DNA of 32,000 nucleotides, from the NCBI GenBank assembly GCA_048886185.1, contig JBHLKY010000019.1, positions 60,001 through 92,000 on the forward strand, in the 5' to 3' direction. Under the pieces are notes generated by a model. That model ran no database searches, was not told the origin of the DNA, and worked only from the letters and a program-made list of their open reading frames with translations. The stretch is from Candidatus Hermodarchaeota archaeon (GTDB taxonomy: Archaea; Asgardarchaeota; Heimdallarchaeia; Hodarchaeales; Hodarchaeaceae). How positions within the stretch are numbered: the stretch's first letter is position 1; every line of letters starts with the position of its first letter. A program made the position numbers and the translations under genes. This document shows, one piece after another, positions 14,499 to 22,317 of this stretch.

Positions 14499-16196
14499 TT
14501 ATAATAAAAATTCCTGCCCTTCTAAGGGGAAAAATATTTTCGAATAAGTATTAAGGATTGGAATTTTATTTATTACTTCCGATCCTAAATGAATAAGGGC
14601 CATCCTATCAGTTAATGATGCAAGTTTGGTTATCTGGTGATAATTTAAGTGCATTTCATGTGTTGTGTTTAAAAAATTACATTCAGAAATTGTCAATTGA
14701 GTTTTTTTAACAAGATGGTGTAATTCATCTGTCCACCCAGTATCACCTGAATAAGCAATAGAAAGATCTTTCATTTCTAATCTATATCCTTGAGCTTCAG
14801 GAGTATGAAGCATTTTAAAAGCTCTGATGATTAATCCATCCATCTTCAATGGAGAATTAGATGGTGTAAGAACTGAGAATTCACAATAAAAAGGGAGCTT
14901 TTCTTCTGCGATGTTTCCATATAATGCTGAGTAAAGATCATTTGTCTTTCTGTCAATCTCTGGAGGGCCAATGATCATCAGTGGCTTTTTCCTTCGTTGA
15001 AAAATGCCAGCTTCTAGTAGAAAGAACGGAATCCCACCAAAATGATCCCCATGAAAATGGGAGATAAGGATTATATCAACATTATTGGTTTCTCTGCGTG
15101 ATTTCTTTAATGCCTGTATTGTGTGGGGGCCACAATCCAATAGAATTCCTTTATCACCAATTTCTACAAAAACAGAGGCACTTTTCCCTCCCCCTGATCC
15201 AAAAGCGTCTCCAGTTCCTAAAAACACAATATTCATCTTATGAGTTCTCTTTGGTTTGATTATTGTTCCAACAGCTTCTCCATTCAAAGCAGTGCTGAAC
15301 TCTTTGAGTCCTACGACCCAACATTTGGTGTGAGATTTTGCTAATTCAATGATATTCTTCAATTTACCGGTCATTTCATTTGTAACATCAAAGTTTCCTT
15401 TAGTTTTAACATTCTGAAAGGAAAGGATTTCATCATTAATACCAAAATATGATATTTCGTCCGCGTCAACTTCAATTCGAGAAATAAATTTAGCATCAGA
15501 GAAACTTGGATCCTTCGTATATATTCCAGTCCGTTTTCCCTCCACATTAGTAAGAAATATGACTGAATCTAAACGAGTAATGTTAAGACGTCTTGTCAAA
15601 GCTGCAGGATAGATATCACCAGAGAATACTTTCCAACCGCTTGATGTAGAACCAACATCTCCATAAAAAACTGGTACTGCTGTAGTTTCAGTAATTATTT
15701 GTTCAAAAATTGTTAGATCAAAAGCATCAGCTTTTTTTGATGAAGTATTTTCTGTTGGAACACCTCTTAAAATGGGATGGGAAGGGAAAGAGATAGCATT
15801 TATACCATTTTTTATGGCTTCAGATACAATTATTTGATTCTGAATGGCAACTGCAAGTTTGATGAAAGGGTATTGAATATCGAGATCTGAATGGTTCTTT
15901 AATAAATGAATAACCAAGGAATGTCCTATTGAACCAGCCCCATGAATTAATGCTAATTTCCTTTTGGGATTTTCAGCTAAAAACGACGATAAAATCTTAA
16001 GGATTTCATTAAGATAATCAAAGTTAACTAAATCAATAATTTTCTCAGTTAATGTTCCTAATGAACCTGTACCTGATTTAAAGAAGTCTATTTGATCTAA
16101 ATATTGTTTAATGCGATAAGAATCTTTTTTATAAGTTATTAAGCTTCCACCCATTTTAACTAACGTGATTGGCGTTTTCTTCATTCTTTTCACCAA
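14499..16196 (-). CDS. Isopentenyl phosphate kinase (amino acid kinase family) fused to an MBL-fold metallo-hydrolase (RNase Z/phosphodiesterase-like)
   Basis: N-terminal part: LVKMGGSLITYK, LIHGAGSIGH (IPK His), PVFYGDV, FSGD, IYTKDP, DVTNEMTGK, GTII. C-terminal part from 15236: FLGTGDAFGSGG, LLDCG, SHFHGDH, HTPEA, YSGDT, ECN. The reading frame is continuous across the junction. Confidence 0.85.
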   Translation of the reverse strand: MVKRMKKTPITLVKMGGSLITYKKDSYRIKQYLDQIDFFKSGTGSLGTLTEKIIDLVNFDYLNEILKILSSFLAENPKRKLALIHGAGSIGHSLVIHLLKNHSDLDIQYPFIKLAVAIQNQIIVSEAIKNGINAISFPSHPILRGVPTENTSSKKADAFDLTIFEQIITETTAVPVFYGDVGSTSSGWKVFSGDIYPAALTRRLNITRLDSVIFLTNVEGKRTGIYTKDPSFSDAKFISRIEVDADEISYFGINDEILSFQNVKTKGNFDVTNEMTGKLKNIIELAKSHTKCWVVGLKEFSTALNGEAVGTIIKPKRTHKMNIVFLGTGDAFGSGGGKSASVFVEIGDKGILLDCGPHTIQALKKSRRETNNVDIILISHFHGDHFGGIPFFLLEAGIFQRRKKPLMIIGPPEIDRKTNDLYSALYGNIAEEKLPFYCEFSVLTPSNSPLKMDGLIIRAFKMLHTPEAQGYRLEMKDLSIAYSGDTGWTDELHHLVKKTQLTISECNFLNTTHEMHLNYHQITKLASLTDRMALIHLGSEVINKIPILNTYSKIFFPLEGQEFLL

Positions 16197-16466: not shown

Positions 16467-18113
16467 ATGAAAATTACTAAGATTATCTTTATCATACTTC
16501 CTACAAGCATCGTGTGGTTAGTTACAGCTCCTTTTCTCCTAGTTTATGCTTTTGATTTGCTTGAAATAGACATAAATCAGAGTTTATCCAGTTCTGGTGT
16601 GATTCTTCTATTTTTTACTGCAATTTTCGCCACTTTTTCCTTGTATTTATCTGGATACATCATTGATAAGAATCCACAGGTAATCAACACATTAATCACA
16701 GGATCTTTGATAATGAGTGGGATTAGTCTCTTCATCACAGTTCTAGGTGTTGATTTTTTTATTTTTCTTATATTAGGATTGATAAGTCTTGGTTTTTTCT
16801 TGGGAATATTAGCATCAGGAGCTAGTGCACTATATACAGCACATTCAGAGGTCCACCACCGAGGACGTATTTATGCCAGTGCCCTATTCATCAGTGCAAT
16901 TATATCACTAATCATTATCCTATATGTTGAACTCTTTAAGCTAGATATTCGAATTCCTCTCCTTATTATTAGCAATTTGGCGATTCTTGCTGCAATCCTT
17001 TTCTATTATGTTTCTCGCTCATCATCTCCTTGGGTGAATGATAAATTCCCTACTCCAATCAAACATATTATTAATCGGAGATCAGTTAAAGCTTATTTGG
17101 TCGCTCATTTCTTCTTTTATTTTATGCTTGGAATAGCTTTTGCTACTCTATCCCAGATCGGTCATTCACGGTATCCCGATCTACTAGTTACTCTGCCATT
17201 CCTTGGAAAGCTGGCATTAGATCAGACAAAATTATTTTGGATCATTGTTTTCTTTGGTGATTTACTTTGTGTATTACCAATGGGGTGGTTTTCTGATCAT
17301 TTTGGAAGAAAGAACCTTGTTGTAATGGGTTTTTATGGAGTCGTAGTTGCAGCATTAATTGTAGGCTTAAGTGAAAATCCAATAATGTTCTACTTCTCTG
17401 CGTATCTATTAGGGGTCAGCTTTTCAGCGATCCATCCCTCTCTTGATAGTGCTGTATGGTGTGACTTAAGCCCTCTTGACTCTGTAGGACGATATAATGC
17501 CTTAGGTTTCGTTTTTTTACTACAAGGAGTCGGATGTGGTTTAGCGATGGGCATATTTATACTTCCCTTAAGTCCTAGTACTATTAGTTATGTCCTTTTT
17601 GGTTCAGCTGTTTTTGGATTATTTCCCCTCTTTTTTGTAGCAGACTCTTTTGAACCTCTTGATATCTACCTTCTCTTAATTGCTACAAGCGGAATATGCA
17701 TGTTTAATTACGATTTTGAAAGACCAGATCAAAGTAAGATTACTGAAAAAGATCTAGCTCTTGTGGCCGGCGCCTTATCAGCTATTAGTACATTTTTCGA
17801 GGGGATAAGCCAACAACCTGCTGTTTTAGATCTTGTTCGTCATGGTAAAGTGGTGACTTTCCAAACAAAAGGAGGAACAGAGAGAAAGGAGCTCATCGCC
17901 ACAATTTTTACCAACAAGATGGATCCTGAGCTACAACAAAGCCTAGATAGTTTCTTAGCAAGATTTTGTTTATCTTATCATAACGAGATAAATGAGTGGA
18001 TTGGTCAAACTAGTGTTTTTGATCCTGCAATCAGTATCGCTGAAGATGTTTTTGGTCCTCTTATTCCATCTAAAACAGTATTAAGAAGTTTAAAAGAGTC
18101 AGAGATTAACTGA
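16467..18113 (+). CDS. 12-TM MFS transporter fused to a C-terminal longin domain (copy 1)
   Basis: About 12 hydrophobic segments, MFS motif A GWFSDHFGRK and loop HHRGR. From about 17655 a soluble longin pattern: LLLIATSGICMFNYDF...LVAGALSAISTFF...LDLVRHG...IATIFTN...FLARFCLSY...W.G...F. Confidence 0.85.
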   Translation: MKITKIIFIILPTSIVWLVTAPFLLVYAFDLLEIDINQSLSSSGVILLFFTAIFATFSLYLSGYIIDKNPQVINTLITGSLIMSGISLFITVLGVDFFIFLILGLISLGFFLGILASGASALYTAHSEVHHRGRIYASALFISAIISLIIILYVELFKLDIRIPLLIISNLAILAAILFYYVSRSSSPWVNDKFPTPIKHIINRRSVKAYLVAHFFFYFMLGIAFATLSQIGHSRYPDLLVTLPFLGKLALDQTKLFWIIVFFGDLLCVLPMGWFSDHFGRKNLVVMGFYGVVVAALIVGLSENPIMFYFSAYLLGVSFSAIHPSLDSAVWCDLSPLDSVGRYNALGFVFLLQGVGCGLAMGIFILPLSPSTISYVLFGSAVFGLFPLFFVADSFEPLDIYLLLIATSGICMFNYDFERPDQSKITEKDLALVAGALSAISTFFEGISQQPAVLDLVRHGKVVTFQTKGGTERKELIATIFTNKMDPELQQSLDSFLARFCLSYHNEINEWIGQTSVFDPAISIAEDVFGPLIPSKTVLRSLKESEIN

Positions 18114-18295
18114 TTACCAATATTATTACTATGATGACTGTTACTTCAAAATAAAAAGGATGGGTAAGTAAGTTAATAAAGTTCCCCAGATCAATAAAAT
18201 ATTAACATTTTTCTACGAGAATATCAAGAAAGGAAGAAAATTACTAAATAAATATTATGATATACGTTGTAAAATAGATAACAGAATCCTATATA

Positions 18296-19972
18296 ATGTC
18301 CAATGTGATAAAAGTGAAAATCAAAATAATTTTGACCGTAATTATCCCAAGTATATTCTCTTGGTTGTTAGCTTCCCTATTACTCTTGGTTTATTCTTTT
18401 GATATTTTAGATAAAGTAGAATCGTCAAAAAACAATCCTTTTCTCGGATTTGGAATGTTGATATTGGGTTTTGTATTGTGTTTGGTTATCTTCATGCTTT
18501 ACTATACTGGCTCTGTACTCGATAGCCATCCAGAATATTTATGGCTTTCTGTGATAATAGGGATGGTGGGGAGCTCTATTTCAGTTATTATTTCAATTAT
18601 ATTTTTTGAGGAATATATAATATTGATGATTGGATTGATATGCCTTGCTTTCTTTTTCGGAATATTGTTAACAAGTAATGGAACACTGTTTGCTGGGTTA
18701 ACAGATATGTGGCACCGAGGAAGAGTATATTCATATTGTATCTTCATCTTTATTGCTATTGCCTTACTTAGTATCCTCTTTGGGGGAGTATTTTCGCATG
18801 AATATGAGAGGATTTACCAAAGTGGGATTTGGACTTATAGCTTCACAAGTGTGTTAGTTGTTGTTGGTATTCTTGGACTTATATTTGCTTTAATTTTTTT
18901 CCTTTTAACCCGTAATCTAGGTATCCCTTGGCAAAATGATAAATGGCCAACAAAATTTTCCAAAATCATTGGACGAAGGTCAGTTCGAGCTTATATACTC
19001 TCACACATTTTATTATATACGATGCTTGGTATTTCTTTAGCTAGTTTTTCTCGAATTGGAGAGTTATTGGAAATTTCTTGGGCAATAGGGGAGTATGATC
19101 TCCCTGTTGATAAAACGTTTTGGTTTTTCGTCCTACTTGGAGATCTCCTAGTGATTTTACCTGCTGGGTACCTTGCGGATCGTTTCGGACGAAAAAATTT
19201 TATTGTTGCTGCAATTTATGGATTAGTATTTGCATCATTGATTTTTGGGCTAGAAAAGTCTCCCAATAGCTTCCTCATTGCTGCTTTTGGTATAGGTTTT
19301 TCTTTTGCAATGCTCCATACAACACTAGACTCCTCTTTATGGGCTGATTTATCTCCTCGGGATGGTCTTGGCCGTTATTACTCGATTGGGTTTATTTCAC
19401 TTGCACTTGGTCTTGGAATTGGCTCTGGATTTGGTCATTGGGTTTTAACACCTATGGTTACTGATCTTTCGGGATTAGAATTCATTACATACCTTATAAC
19501 TATTTTAGCAGTTCTATCGGCTTTACCTTTGTTCTGGGTATCAGATAGTTTCAAACCACTTGATTTTACGCTCCTTCTTGTTATTGAGGAAGGAGGACTA
19601 CCAATCTTCGATTACACATTTACAAAAGATATAGATACCAGTATTGAATTAACATTACTTTCAGGAGCTCTCAAAGCCGTATCCTCTTTTATGTCCGAAA
19701 CCATGAAAGACAAAGGCGATTTGAATCTAGTAAGACATGGTAACCACTTTATATTGACTGAAAAAAAGAATGGAACATCTGCTGCTATTTTTAGTAATAA
19801 ACAGGATCCAGAATTACATAAAGCTCTTCGAGAATTTCTTGAAAAGTTCTGTATTAAGTATAATGAAACGCTTAAAACATGGCGTGGAGTTCGGTCTCTA
19901 TTTGATGGTGCTGTTGATATTGCAGAGGAAGTTTTTGGATATCTATCACCTTCAACGAACCTTGAAGAATAA
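18296..19972 (+). CDS. 12-TM MFS transporter fused to a C-terminal longin domain (copy 2, paralog)
   Basis: GYLADRFGRK and WHRGR. From about 19556: LLVIEEGGLPIFDYTF...LLSGALKAVSSFMSETM...LNLVRHGNHFIL...AAIFSNKQDPEL...FLEKFCIKY. Alternative GTG start at 18314 (VKIK aligns with MKIT of copy 1). Confidence 0.85.
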   Translation: MSNVIKVKIKIILTVIIPSIFSWLLASLLLLVYSFDILDKVESSKNNPFLGFGMLILGFVLCLVIFMLYYTGSVLDSHPEYLWLSVIIGMVGSSISVIISIIFFEEYIILMIGLICLAFFFGILLTSNGTLFAGLTDMWHRGRVYSYCIFIFIAIALLSILFGGVFSHEYERIYQSGIWTYSFTSVLVVVGILGLIFALIFFLLTRNLGIPWQNDKWPTKFSKIIGRRSVRAYILSHILLYTMLGISLASFSRIGELLEISWAIGEYDLPVDKTFWFFVLLGDLLVILPAGYLADRFGRKNFIVAAIYGLVFASLIFGLEKSPNSFLIAAFGIGFSFAMLHTTLDSSLWADLSPRDGLGRYYSIGFISLALGLGIGSGFGHWVLTPMVTDLSGLEFITYLITILAVLSALPLFWVSDSFKPLDFTLLLVIEEGGLPIFDYTFTKDIDTSIELTLLSGALKAVSSFMSETMKDKGDLNLVRHGNHFILTEKKNGTSAAIFSNKQDPELHKALREFLEKFCIKYNETLKTWRGVRSLFDGAVDIAEEVFGYLSPSTNLEE

Positions 19973-19974
19973 TA

Positions 19975-20871
19975 ATGAGTGATAACATGCTAAGTAATCT
20001 GCTTTATCGTTTGAGAGTACCGAACATTGTTGGTTCATCACTTTTTGCTTTTACTGGATTAATACTGAATCTACGTCAGCCTCACACGTTTGAAATGTAC
20101 AGAGCTCTTCTAATTGTACTTTCTATGATATTCTTCAATATCTTCATCTGGATTTCAAATGACTATTATGATGCTCCATATGATGCTGCTGATGCTTATA
20201 AGAGGGCAAGAAACGTATTTTGCGGGAAATCAGAAAGTCGAGATTATAAGATTGGAATGACTTTAATGGTTTTTTCAATACTATCGGGATTAATTAGTGG
20301 ATGGTTTGCTGGTCTTATCTATTTTTTATTTGCTGTCGCAGGAATGCTTCTTGCATATTTTTATAACAGTCCAATTTTTCGTGCAAAGAGTCGGATTGGT
20401 TTTGATTGGATTTTTCATGTAATCTGGTTTCAAATCACATTTCTTCCCCTATATTTGTATATTTTTGGTTTTGATGTAATTTGGGGTCTTGAGACAAAAC
20501 ATATTCAATTTTATTGTGTTTTTCTTTCAATTTCTTTACTGTCATTGTTAGCGCAAATAAATCATCAGATTCCCGACTATTCTCTAGATCTTCATACAGA
20601 ACAAAGAACAACCGTTGTTGCTTTAGGGATAGAAATTACGTTAAAGCTTAGATACATATTTTATTTTTCTATCTCTATTGCTGTTTTTATTCTTTGTATA
20701 CTAAACAATACATTCATTGCTTTGTTAATGATGATTATCTATACTCTATACATGTTAAAGACTGATAAAACGAAAGCAGCAGATGCTCCTTTACCATGGT
20801 TGTACTTTTTTGTACTAGATTACCTAATTCTCTCTCCAATATTATCCAATATTTTTTCAATATTATTATAA
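19975..20871 (+). CDS. UbiA-superfamily intramembrane prenyltransferase
   Basis: First Asp-rich motif NDYYDAPYD, then YNSPIFRAK, and second motif NHQIPDYSLD...RTTVVALG. Multiple TM helices. Starts 2 nt after MFS-longin copy 2. Confidence 0.88.
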   Translation: MSDNMLSNLLYRLRVPNIVGSSLFAFTGLILNLRQPHTFEMYRALLIVLSMIFFNIFIWISNDYYDAPYDAADAYKRARNVFCGKSESRDYKIGMTLMVFSILSGLISGWFAGLIYFLFAVAGMLLAYFYNSPIFRAKSRIGFDWIFHVIWFQITFLPLYLYIFGFDVIWGLETKHIQFYCVFLSISLLSLLAQINHQIPDYSLDLHTEQRTTVVALGIEITLKLRYIFYFSISIAVFILCILNNTFIALLMMIIYTLYMLKTDKTKAADAPLPWLYFFVLDYLILSPILSNIFSILL

Positions 20872-20893
20872 ATCTATTATAGGTGTTTGACAA

Positions 20894-21559
20894 GTGGTCC
20901 TGTTCCTTATTATTCAGCTTTTGTTAACATTAAGCCTTATTATCCTTTTTCTACTTGTTTTTACTGGAGTTACTTCATTTGAGGTTGATTTAATCCCTTC
21001 ATTGGTTATATCCCTCTTTCTAACCTATTTTTTGACGCTTTTTCTTCTAGCTAGTATGCACAAGATTTCAAGAGTTTTAATGAAAAATAAGGAAGGTGAG
21101 ATAGATGGTACGGATTTAATCTTATGGACAATTCAAGCCACAAGCTTGGACATTGCTATAACATTAACTCGAAAGTTAATTATTCATTCTCCTTTTCCAG
21201 ATGTCCTTTTTAGATTATTTGGTCTAAAAATTAAGAAGGGGGTTTCAATATTAACTCCTCGTATCTGGGATCCCGATCTTATTGAAATCGGGGAGAACAC
21301 TTTAGTGGGTACAAACACCCTAATATCAGGACATCATATAAGGAGGGGTAAAATGTTCCGAAGACGAATTATTATTGGGAAAAATGTCACAATCGGAGCT
21401 GATTGTGTCATTTTACCAGGTGTAGTAATTGGAGACAATACTATAGTTGGTCTTGGCTCTAGTATTCCACCTAACCAAATACTGGATGCCAACAGTCTAT
21501 ATAGTGGTGTTCCAGTGAAAAAGCTGAAATCTTTGACCATTAAAGATTCAGAGAATTGA
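20894..21559 (+). CDS. Membrane-anchored LbH acyltransferase, paralog 2
   Basis: Two TM helices, FRLFGLKIKKGV, IEIGENTLVG, SGHH, IIIGKNVTIG, VIGDNTIVG and YSGVPV. Confidence 0.88.
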   Translation: MVLFLIIQLLLTLSLIILFLLVFTGVTSFEVDLIPSLVISLFLTYFLTLFLLASMHKISRVLMKNKEGEIDGTDLILWTIQATSLDIAITLTRKLIIHSPFPDVLFRLFGLKIKKGVSILTPRIWDPDLIEIGENTLVGTNTLISGHHIRRGKMFRRRIIIGKNVTIGADCVILPGVVIGDNTIVGLGSSIPPNQILDANSLYSGVPVKKLKSLTIKDSEN

Positions 21560-21617
21560 TTCCATTATTTATTATAATTATAGATTTTTGACACAATGAA
21601 ATTTCCGTTTCTGATTT

Positions 21618-22292
21618 TTAAAGTTCTTTGGGATCAATTTCTTTAACTTTTTTAACTGGCACACCAGAATAAATGCAATTTGAATCAAGCTTCCAATTTG
21701 CAGGTACAAGAGATCCTGCACTTACCATTACATTATCTCCAATTTCTGCTCCTGGTAAAACAGTGGAGAGAATGCCGAGGGTGCAATTTTTTCCAATTTT
21801 AATACGCTTTCGATAGAGTCTTCCCCTCCGTATATGATGAGCAGTTATCATCGCATTTGTTCCTATTAATGTCCCCTCTCCCACATCAATAAGCTCTAAG
21901 TCCCATAAATCTGCCATAATACTCACCCCTTTTCTTTTCTTAAAACCAAATAATCTCATGAGTATATCTGGAAATAGTGGTAATAAGATTATTTTCTTTG
22001 TAATTATCCGGGCTAAATCCCAGGTAGTTTCCTTGATTGTCCATAAAATTTTCTCTAATCCAGCCAATTCTCCCTCTTTATCGCGAAGTAATACCCTAGA
22101 AGTTTTGTTAATTGAAGCTAAGCCAAACAATATTGTGAAATATGATATTAGGAATGTTAGTATAATCACTATGAGAATTTCTATAATGGAAGGGAAAAAA
22201 AATAAATCTTGAGAGAGAACTCCAAGAAATACAAAATAAACAATCGTGATACAGAGACATATTAGGATTAATTGAATAATTAGATAAATCAT
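21618..22292 (-). CDS. Membrane-anchored LbH acyltransferase, paralog 3
   Basis: Colinear with paralog 2 (KEGE, ILWTI, RLFG, HHIRRG, IGKN, YSGVPVKK). ATG at 22292, with an alternative GTG at 22295. Confidence 0.88.
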   Translation of the reverse strand: MIYLIIQLILICLCITIVYFVFLGVLSQDLFFFPSIIEILIVIILTFLISYFTILFGLASINKTSRVLLRDKEGELAGLEKILWTIKETTWDLARIITKKIILLPLFPDILMRLFGFKKRKGVSIMADLWDLELIDVGEGTLIGTNAMITAHHIRRGRLYRKRIKIGKNCTLGILSTVLPGAEIGDNVMVSAGSLVPANWKLDSNCIYSGVPVKKVKEIDPKEL

Positions 22293-22317
22293 CACATTAA
22301 CACTTTGTTTGAATCCT

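Follow-up and report, generated by a model that had tools for sequence, protein, structure and literature searches.

In archaea the mevalonate pathway ends with isopentenyl phosphate kinase (IPK), which converts isopentenyl phosphate (IP) and ATP to isopentenyl diphosphate (IPP) and ADP. We analyzed a gene from a Candidatus Hermodarchaeota archaeon (Asgardarchaeota; Heimdallarchaeia; Hodarchaeales; Hodarchaeaceae in GTDB) in which an IPK-type kinase runs, in one reading frame, into a metallo-beta-lactamase (MBL) fold hydrolase. The gene lies in a 32,000-nucleotide stretch of contig JBHLKY010000019.1 (forward-strand positions 60,001 to 92,000; GenBank assembly GCA_048886185.1), referred to at its full length as the window, and all gene positions below that name no other contig or locus are counted from its first letter. 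The fusion is a genuine, clade-wide one, a new domain architecture built from two known families and confined to one family of the Hodarchaeales, and the protein it encodes is predicted to be bifunctional.

Each half has well-described counterparts. Archaeal IPKs (NF040647, EC 2.7.4.26; structures 8u0k, 3k4o and 3ll9) share with the kinase half their fold and alkyl pocket, together with the IPK-specific His and 13 of 14 signature residues, but the fusion protein differs from them in its extra MBL domain, two insertions, an altered D-V-T-G-G loop, a family score below the cut-off and a long branch. The hydrolase half has the roughly 245-residue armless fold, the [T/S]HxHxDH motif and the two-metal site of the atypical class II phosphodiesterases (YhfI, 6kns; BA1088, 1zkp; Rv1339; CpdA; phage Apyc1, 7u2r and 7t28), and its start, G-T-G-D-A-F, resembles the G-T-G-G-A-F of Apyc1. 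It departs from this group in being only 18-21% identical to the solved members, in being fused to a kinase, and in belonging to a host in which no cyclase or domain binding cyclic mononucleotides (cNMPs) was found. Short-form tRNase Z, or ElaC (TIGR02651; 1y44, 2cbn and 3zwf), aligns well along the first 150 residues of the MBL core and at the His motifs, whereas the hydrolase half is without the arm and the PxKxRN motif and attains about a third of that family's cut-off score.

Pairings of an MBL protein with a kinase, and of an IPK with a second enzyme, are also on record. In the C-P lyase pathway of E. coli, the MBL diesterase PhnP yields a phosphomonoester and the kinase PhnN then makes a diphosphate. 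PhnP (3g1p) is a fold match of the hydrolase half, but the parallel is one of analogy only: PhnN does not have the amino-acid-kinase fold, the hydrolase half scores 32 bits against the PhnP model (TIGR03307), which has a cut-off of 272, and no phn genes lie near the fusion locus. In Haloferax volcanii, the armless RNase Z-like MBL protein NZ (HVO_2763, arCOG00500), which is inactive on RNA, is encoded beside the IPK gene HVO_2762 (PMC3296008); the authors of that study report no conserved neighborhood of HVO_2763 in relatives, and we liken it to the hydrolase half by its literature description. Some Asgard archaea outside the fusion's family join IPK to type 2 IPP isomerase (IDI2), the next enzyme of the pathway, whereas the MBL partner found here has no known place in the pathway. 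These IPK-IDI2 proteins are canonical IPKs in frames of 632-645 residues in Asgard families f13 and f24 (L034:1459-3393, L050:1468-3387, L053, L061 and L063); the two that were scanned with Pfam have an IPK and an FMN_dh domain, the latter being IDI2, and so unite two consecutive mevalonate steps. In family f16 (L062:931-2295 and five other genomes) the IPK has an N-terminal extension of about 190 residues without a Pfam match, giving frames of 446-459 residues.

The fusion gene is a single minus-strand open reading frame at 14499..16196, of 565 codons counted from a TTG. Its start is probably the ATG at 16184 (residue 5), because the homologues in our family alignment (40 fusion proteins, the source of the statements on residue invariance unless another alignment is named) and the ESM Atlas record begin at that residue. 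The features of the gene are as follows.

14499..16184, minus strand: whole fusion gene, 561 amino acids from the probable ATG start at 16184, or 565 if the TTG at 16196 is used
14499-14501, minus strand: stop codon of the fusion gene
15255..16184, minus strand: IPK-type domain of amino-acid-kinase fold, residues 5-314, placed by Pfam, NCBIfam, Foldseek and the kinase tree
16155..16157, minus strand: codon of K14, the predicted catalytic Lys of the K-x-G-G-S loop (VKMGGS), aligned to 3k4o and 8u0k and equivalent to M. jannaschii K6
15921..15941, minus strand: G86-A-G-S-I-G-H92, in which H92 corresponds to the IPK-specific catalytic His (M. jannaschii H60) and G86 to G54
15237..15254, minus strand: linker P-K-R-T-H-K, residues 315-320 (6-7 residues, KPKRTHK being 314-320), placed by alignment
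14502..15236, minus strand: predicted armless MBL-fold phosphodiesterase domain, residues 321-565, placed by Pfam, fold matches and the missing RNase Z arm
15042..15062, minus strand: S379-H-F-H-G-D-H385, metal-binding motif II, fitting the [T/S]HxHxDH signature

Pfam AA_kinase (PF00696) matched residues 10-295 with 69 bits, and Lactamase_B and Lactamase_B_2 matched residues 335-530 with 57-58 bits. The first-pass annotation, made from the window's letters and translated frames, had described an IPK-like kinase with the KxGGS Lys and the IPK His, an in-frame linker KPKRTHK, and a complete HxHxDH MBL domain too short for the RNase Z arm. All of these are borne out: K14 stands in VKMGGS, HGAGSIGH occupies residues 85-92, the linker is residues 314-320 of the one frame, HFHGDH is found at 380-385 among invariant metal ligands, and residues ~159-201 of B. 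subtilis RNase Z, which include the flexible arm, have no counterpart. It had also given the MBL domain its own Met at 15236. M321 is indeed encoded there (15234-15236), but in the family alignment this position varies among relatives, with T, I, A, K, S and N among the residues there; because the Met is not conserved, it gives no evidence of an internal start, and we rejected M321 as a separate start. Linker length is near-constant, with one single-residue indel among the 40 aligned fusion sequences. The AlphaFold model of the fusion protein is confident (pLDDT 89.7, pTM 0.87), and prediction of a kinase-MBL complex from two alignments gave an ipSAE of 0.01-0.03, which speaks neither for nor against packing of the two halves.

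We then looked at how widely the fusion is kept. A word-indexed search returned about 60 sequence clusters of 46-70% identity. Each has both domains in 554-577 amino acids, and the sources are throughout metagenome-assembled genomes of Hodarchaeales or Heimdall type, produced by many studies. Whole-genome searches within the GTDB family of the window, a single genus, recovered the fusion from seven of seven genomes and then from 20 of 22; the two without it are 71% and 74% complete. It was found in none of the 144 other Asgard genomes sampled. The frame is complete in 18 of 19 public loci and in all 18 that can be assessed, the apparent truncation in CP070665.1 being a scaffold gap, where the one short match ends against a stretch of N. 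The junction is covered, without any difference, by contigs assembled from three sequencing runs of a single study, possibly the source sample, and a strain about 94% identical, from a different study, spans positions 15076-15478 with substitutions only and no insertion or deletion. The first-pass annotation had named separate genes in relatives, or an MBL domain that is an ordinary tRNase Z, as findings that would count against it; relatives instead retain the fusion intact across independent assemblies, the junction reads through without an indel, and the arm and PxKxRN motif of tRNase Z are absent. In automatic annotation, part of the family already carries the label "ribonuclease BN / isopentenyl phosphate kinase". 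When we searched the literature for the fusion, only the Haloferax NZ paper and general reviews came up, and no paper describing it.

The residues conserved in IPKs, including the His (M. jannaschii H60) that other amino-acid kinases lack, are listed in Table 2 of PMC3857490. Aligned to solved IPKs, the kinase half keeps 13 of 14 of these signature residues (K14, G16, G17, K23, G86, H92, P175, G179, D270, T272, K278, G310 and T311; in M. jannaschii K6, G8, G9, K15, G54, H60, P140, G144, D213, T215, K221, G253 and T254), with the P-x-x-x-G-D strand among them, all of them invariant or nearly so in 40 homologues; G86, A87, G88, G91 and H92 are invariant in the 40 fusion proteins, and K14 in the kinase alignment. 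The alkyl-pocket positions R1-R4 of characterized IPKs follow the pattern Y/F/A, I/V/T, I/V/T, I/V (PMC8500459), and their equivalents here, A115, I118, V181 and V190 (aligned to M. jannaschii F83, I86, I146 and I156), fall within it. Foldseek matched the N-terminal half to the T. paralvinellae IPK 8u0k, which has dimethylallyl phosphate (DMAP) and ADP bound, with a TM-score of 0.83 by target.

We placed the fusion kinases in a maximum-likelihood tree built from 64 IPK-type sequences of Asgard archaea (quick search, with support from the Shimodaira-Hasegawa-like approximate likelihood ratio test, SH-aLRT); they form one clade (support 100) nested inside the Asgard IPKs. Their neighbors are a stand-alone 339-residue protein, P0236, and the sole IPK of family f17 (support 99), and one step further out are the IPKs of a same-class family (support 82). 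The source genome has a second, unfused IPK of 279 amino acids (contig C9:143646-144446; L001:1486-2325; 160-163 bits), which groups with the "second paralogue" of families f10 and f13 (support 92) rather than with other IPKs from its class. By this placement, the fused kinase is the vertically inherited IPK of the lineage and the unfused copy a member of a different paralogue line. Both insertions of the fused kinase are shared with P0236, at whose locus we found no MBL neighbor; because they are shared, the insertions are probably older than the fusion, provided that P0236 did not arise by a secondary split.

The source genome also appears to need an IPK. A compact and complete mevalonate operon of archaeal type lies on contig C3:17900-24500 (L109:1948-8506), with genes for MVK, a UbiD-type decarboxylase, the large and small subunits of AcnX, UbiX, a 141-residue protein and IDI2, and with no IPK gene among them. 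Our search of the source genome found no MVD-family gene, in contrast to a published survey that gives PMK and DMD in Hodarchaeales (PMC11052028). IP is thus a predicted intermediate of the pathway in this genome, since the operon is of the archaeal type and no MVD-family gene was found. The closed 4.94-Mb chromosome of a relative, CP070695.1, has AcnX and gave no MVD-family hit, and no unfused IPK was found in it, either with the family model or with the unfused C9 protein as query. The fusion is the only IPK homologue in CP070695.1 and hence the only candidate there for the conversion of IP to IPP, which we regard as the strongest argument for a working kinase half. Because of the signature residues, the pocket, the nesting in the tree and this sole-homologue status, the kinase half is most likely a working IPK (EC 2.7.4.26).

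In the hydrolase half, D354, H380, H382, D384, H385, H464, D485, H516 and H536, comprising the metal ligands and the accessory His, are invariant in the family alignment. The predicted two-metal site is complete, so that both putative active sites of the fusion are complete and conserved. The motif [T/S]HxHxDH, with x small or hydrophobic, is the signature of the atypical class II phosphodiesterases Rv1339, YhfI and CpdA (PMC9293780), and S379-H-F-H-G-D-H385 conforms to it. The half scores 57.1 bits against PF12706 (gathering score 27) over an armless fold of about 245 residues. Its best fold matches are BA1088 (1zkp), YhfI (6kns) and Apyc1 (7u2r), with TM-scores of 0.79-0.83 by target, followed at lower rank by RNase Z cores and PhnP, and its ESM Atlas neighbors are Apyc1/MBL clusters. 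The fusion domains group as a single clade (support 96) in our tree of 68 MBL sequences, within a larger group of stand-alone MBLs from neighboring Heimdall families and bacterial proteins of about 245 residues; the fusion is the best match in the source genome for stand-alone Asgard MBLs. Taken at the level of sequence and fold, the hydrolase half is predicted to be an intact, armless two-metal phosphodiesterase of the YhfI/Rv1339/Apyc1 group, with a small soluble diester as its expected substrate and not pre-tRNA. A separate MBL paralogue of 234 amino acids is encoded on contig C16.

The reading that we prefer, with a probability of roughly 0.55, is that the protein unites a working IPK and a working small-molecule diesterase, both activities being predicted. 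The kinase half would convert IP and ATP to IPP and ADP with the Lys/His/Asp machinery customary for IPKs and an alkyl pocket that is small and hydrophobic, and the hydrolase half would hydrolyze a small soluble phosphate diester. The two may be linked: the diesterase would free a phosphomonoester, for example an isoprenyl or alkyl phosphate, which the kinase would raise to a diphosphate. This passage from diester to monoester to diphosphate, after the logic of PhnP and then PhnN, is the likeliest single link that we can propose, but it is offered tentatively, at less than even odds, and by analogy. IPK fusions can follow pathway order, because other Asgard families fuse IPK to IDI2, the enzyme that acts next.

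Several observations weigh against this reading. On the kinase side, the equivalent of M. jannaschii G216 is N273 (N, D, E or G across the family), so that the D-V-T-G-G loop reads D-V-T-N-E here and D-V-T-(D/N/E/G)-A in most family members; the protein scores 84.3 bits against NCBIfam IPPK_Arch (NF040647), or 81.2 in the genome search, below the cut-off of 120; a helical insertion of about 28 residues follows the first strand and a 4-residue insertion lies in the T-D-V-D-G motif; and the fusion-kinase clade sits on a long stem of 1.52 changes per column. A second IPK scoring above the cut-off is kept by 17 of 22 clade genomes, the source genome included, and in such genomes the fused kinase could have drifted to another substrate. 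On the hydrolase side, we found nothing that links this half to isoprenoids, the stand-alone MBL and IPK genes of other Asgards are 40-80 kb apart or on separate contigs, and no amino-acid-kinase gene was found near the MBL relative in 61 bacterial loci. The characterized MBL relatives, moreover, cleave cyclic nucleotides (PMC9117128, PMC9293780).

This last point leads to the rival that survives best, in which the halves have unrelated activities, a housekeeping IPK and a phosphodiesterase for 3',5'- or 2',3'-cNMPs in signaling, defense or nucleotide clean-up, and the fusion serves co-expression only. We consider this unlikely. It is what the nearest characterized relatives (YhfI, Rv1339, C. 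glutamicum CpdA and Apyc1) would suggest, all of them hydrolyzing cNMPs, and it accords with stand-alone MBL orthologues being widespread in Asgards and bacteria without isoprenoid context. Yet neither a class III nucleotide cyclase (PF00211) nor a cNMP-binding domain (PF00027) was found in the 96%-complete source genome, and the hydrolase half falls far below the cut-offs for Apyc1 (PF23023, 24.4 against 50 bits) and for cNMP phosphodiesterases (NF041851, 60.5 against 400 bits). The fixed linker length, and the retention of the fusion across lineages down to 46% identity, also argue against mere co-expression.

The long stem, the sub-threshold family score, the altered loop and the insertions could instead mean that the fused kinase acts on a new alkyl, prenyl or phosphonate monophosphate, which the MBL half makes or uses, while the unfused paralogue serves as the IPK. 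The above-cut-off second IPK in most clade genomes fits this proposal, as does the known promiscuity of IPKs (PMC8500459). It has to contend with CP070695.1, which has the fused form only although its pathway produces IP, with pocket residues typical of IPKs, and with insertions shared with stand-alone P0236 and so probably older than the fusion, the secondary-split proviso again applying. On balance we think it rather improbable.

More doubtful still is the model of the first-pass annotation, a kinase/diphosphatase toggle in which the MBL half strips the terminal phosphate of IPP or dimethylallyl diphosphate (DMAPP) and so adjusts the balance of IP to IPP or of DMAP to DMAPP, one possible use being the supply of DMAP to UbiX. 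UbiX uses DMAP to make prenylated flavin mononucleotide (prenyl-FMN), the cofactor of the archaeal mevalonate decarboxylase, and UbiX together with a UbiD-type decarboxylase requires a source of DMAP. Genes for both are in the mevalonate operon, the PhnP-family MBL structure 6b9v is titled a diphosphatase, and the IPK 8u0k binds DMAP, all of which would suit a toggle. Set against these points, the known activity of MBL enzymes in this group is that of a diesterase and not of an anhydride hydrolase, the same family is common in bacteria and Asgards without any association with IPK, and an unregulated pair would run a futile cycle. We give similarly little weight to the broader proposal that the MBL half acts at the isoprenoid node, either as a hydrolase making DMAP or IP from DMAPP or IPP or by freeing prenyl phosphate from a phosphodiester conjugate for re-activation by the kinase. 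The first-pass annotation had likewise suggested, as a conjectural role, the salvage of prenyl phosphates from phosphodiester lipids.

It is very improbable that the hydrolase half serves the cell as its ordinary tRNase Z, joined to an IPK. RNase Z is among its best sequence matches, and no protein of the source genome reaches the RNase Z family cut-off. But the alignment to B. subtilis RNase Z jumps from residue 158 to 202, deleting the arm and with it the exosite; the position of PxKxRN reads G-S-G-G-G-K-S-A-S; and the RNase Z family models, with cut-offs of 252-293 bits, give it 104-107. Precursors of tRNA and 5S rRNA were not cleaved by HVO_2763, an armless archaeal relative (PMC3296008). 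A better tRNase Z candidate, on alignment, is available in a 364-residue MBL protein on contig C8 (L004:1306-2400), which aligns through the RNase Z arm and scores 95 bits against a cut-off of 293. The tRNase Z of this clade appears unusually divergent. Finally, we give next to no credence to an error of assembly or sequencing, or to two genes recently joined by read-through, as we found no point in favor of either and the conservation data already refute both, with a single frame in independent assemblies of many studies, including two at chromosome level.

Two MFS transporter genes, divergent from the fusion, adjoin it in four of four Hodarchaeales loci inspected, with a UbiA prenyltransferase gene beyond the pair in only two of the four. 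We take this neighborhood to reflect synteny at the level of the order rather than a functional operon. In the window the transporters are in tandem at 16467-19972, each of about 550 amino acids with a C-terminal soluble domain, and 19975-22295 holds the UbiA-family prenyltransferase followed by two paralogous membrane-anchored hexapeptide-repeat acetyltransferases. One of these (20894-21559) has weak matches, among them one of 55.7 bits to the model for heptaprenylglyceryl phosphate O-acetyltransferase, whose cut-off is 300. Around the bacterial MBL relatives (L129-L189), FabI-like frames occur within about 6 kb of the MBL gene at 29 of 61 loci and a GloB-like second MBL at 22 of 61, as labeled from N-terminal sequences; these neighbors may reflect synteny only, many of the genomes being related (Binatia, Deltaproteobacteria).

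The clade has at least one closed genome in which the fused protein appears to be the sole enzyme for the final step to IPP. Isoprenoid-lipid synthesis in the Hodarchaeales bears on the "lipid divide", because the order is currently held to contain the closest archaeal relatives of eukaryotes, at least as summarized in PMC11052028, which cites Eme et al. 2023 for this. Computation offers few clues to a partnership between proteins, a stable fusion being one of them, and this one ties the armless MBL family, widespread and mostly uncharacterized beyond a few cNMP phosphodiesterases, to the IP/IPP node. Were the halves functionally unrelated, the fusion would be only a curiosity of domain architecture; if the reading at the isoprenoid node is true, it would give this very widespread armless family its first physiological role.

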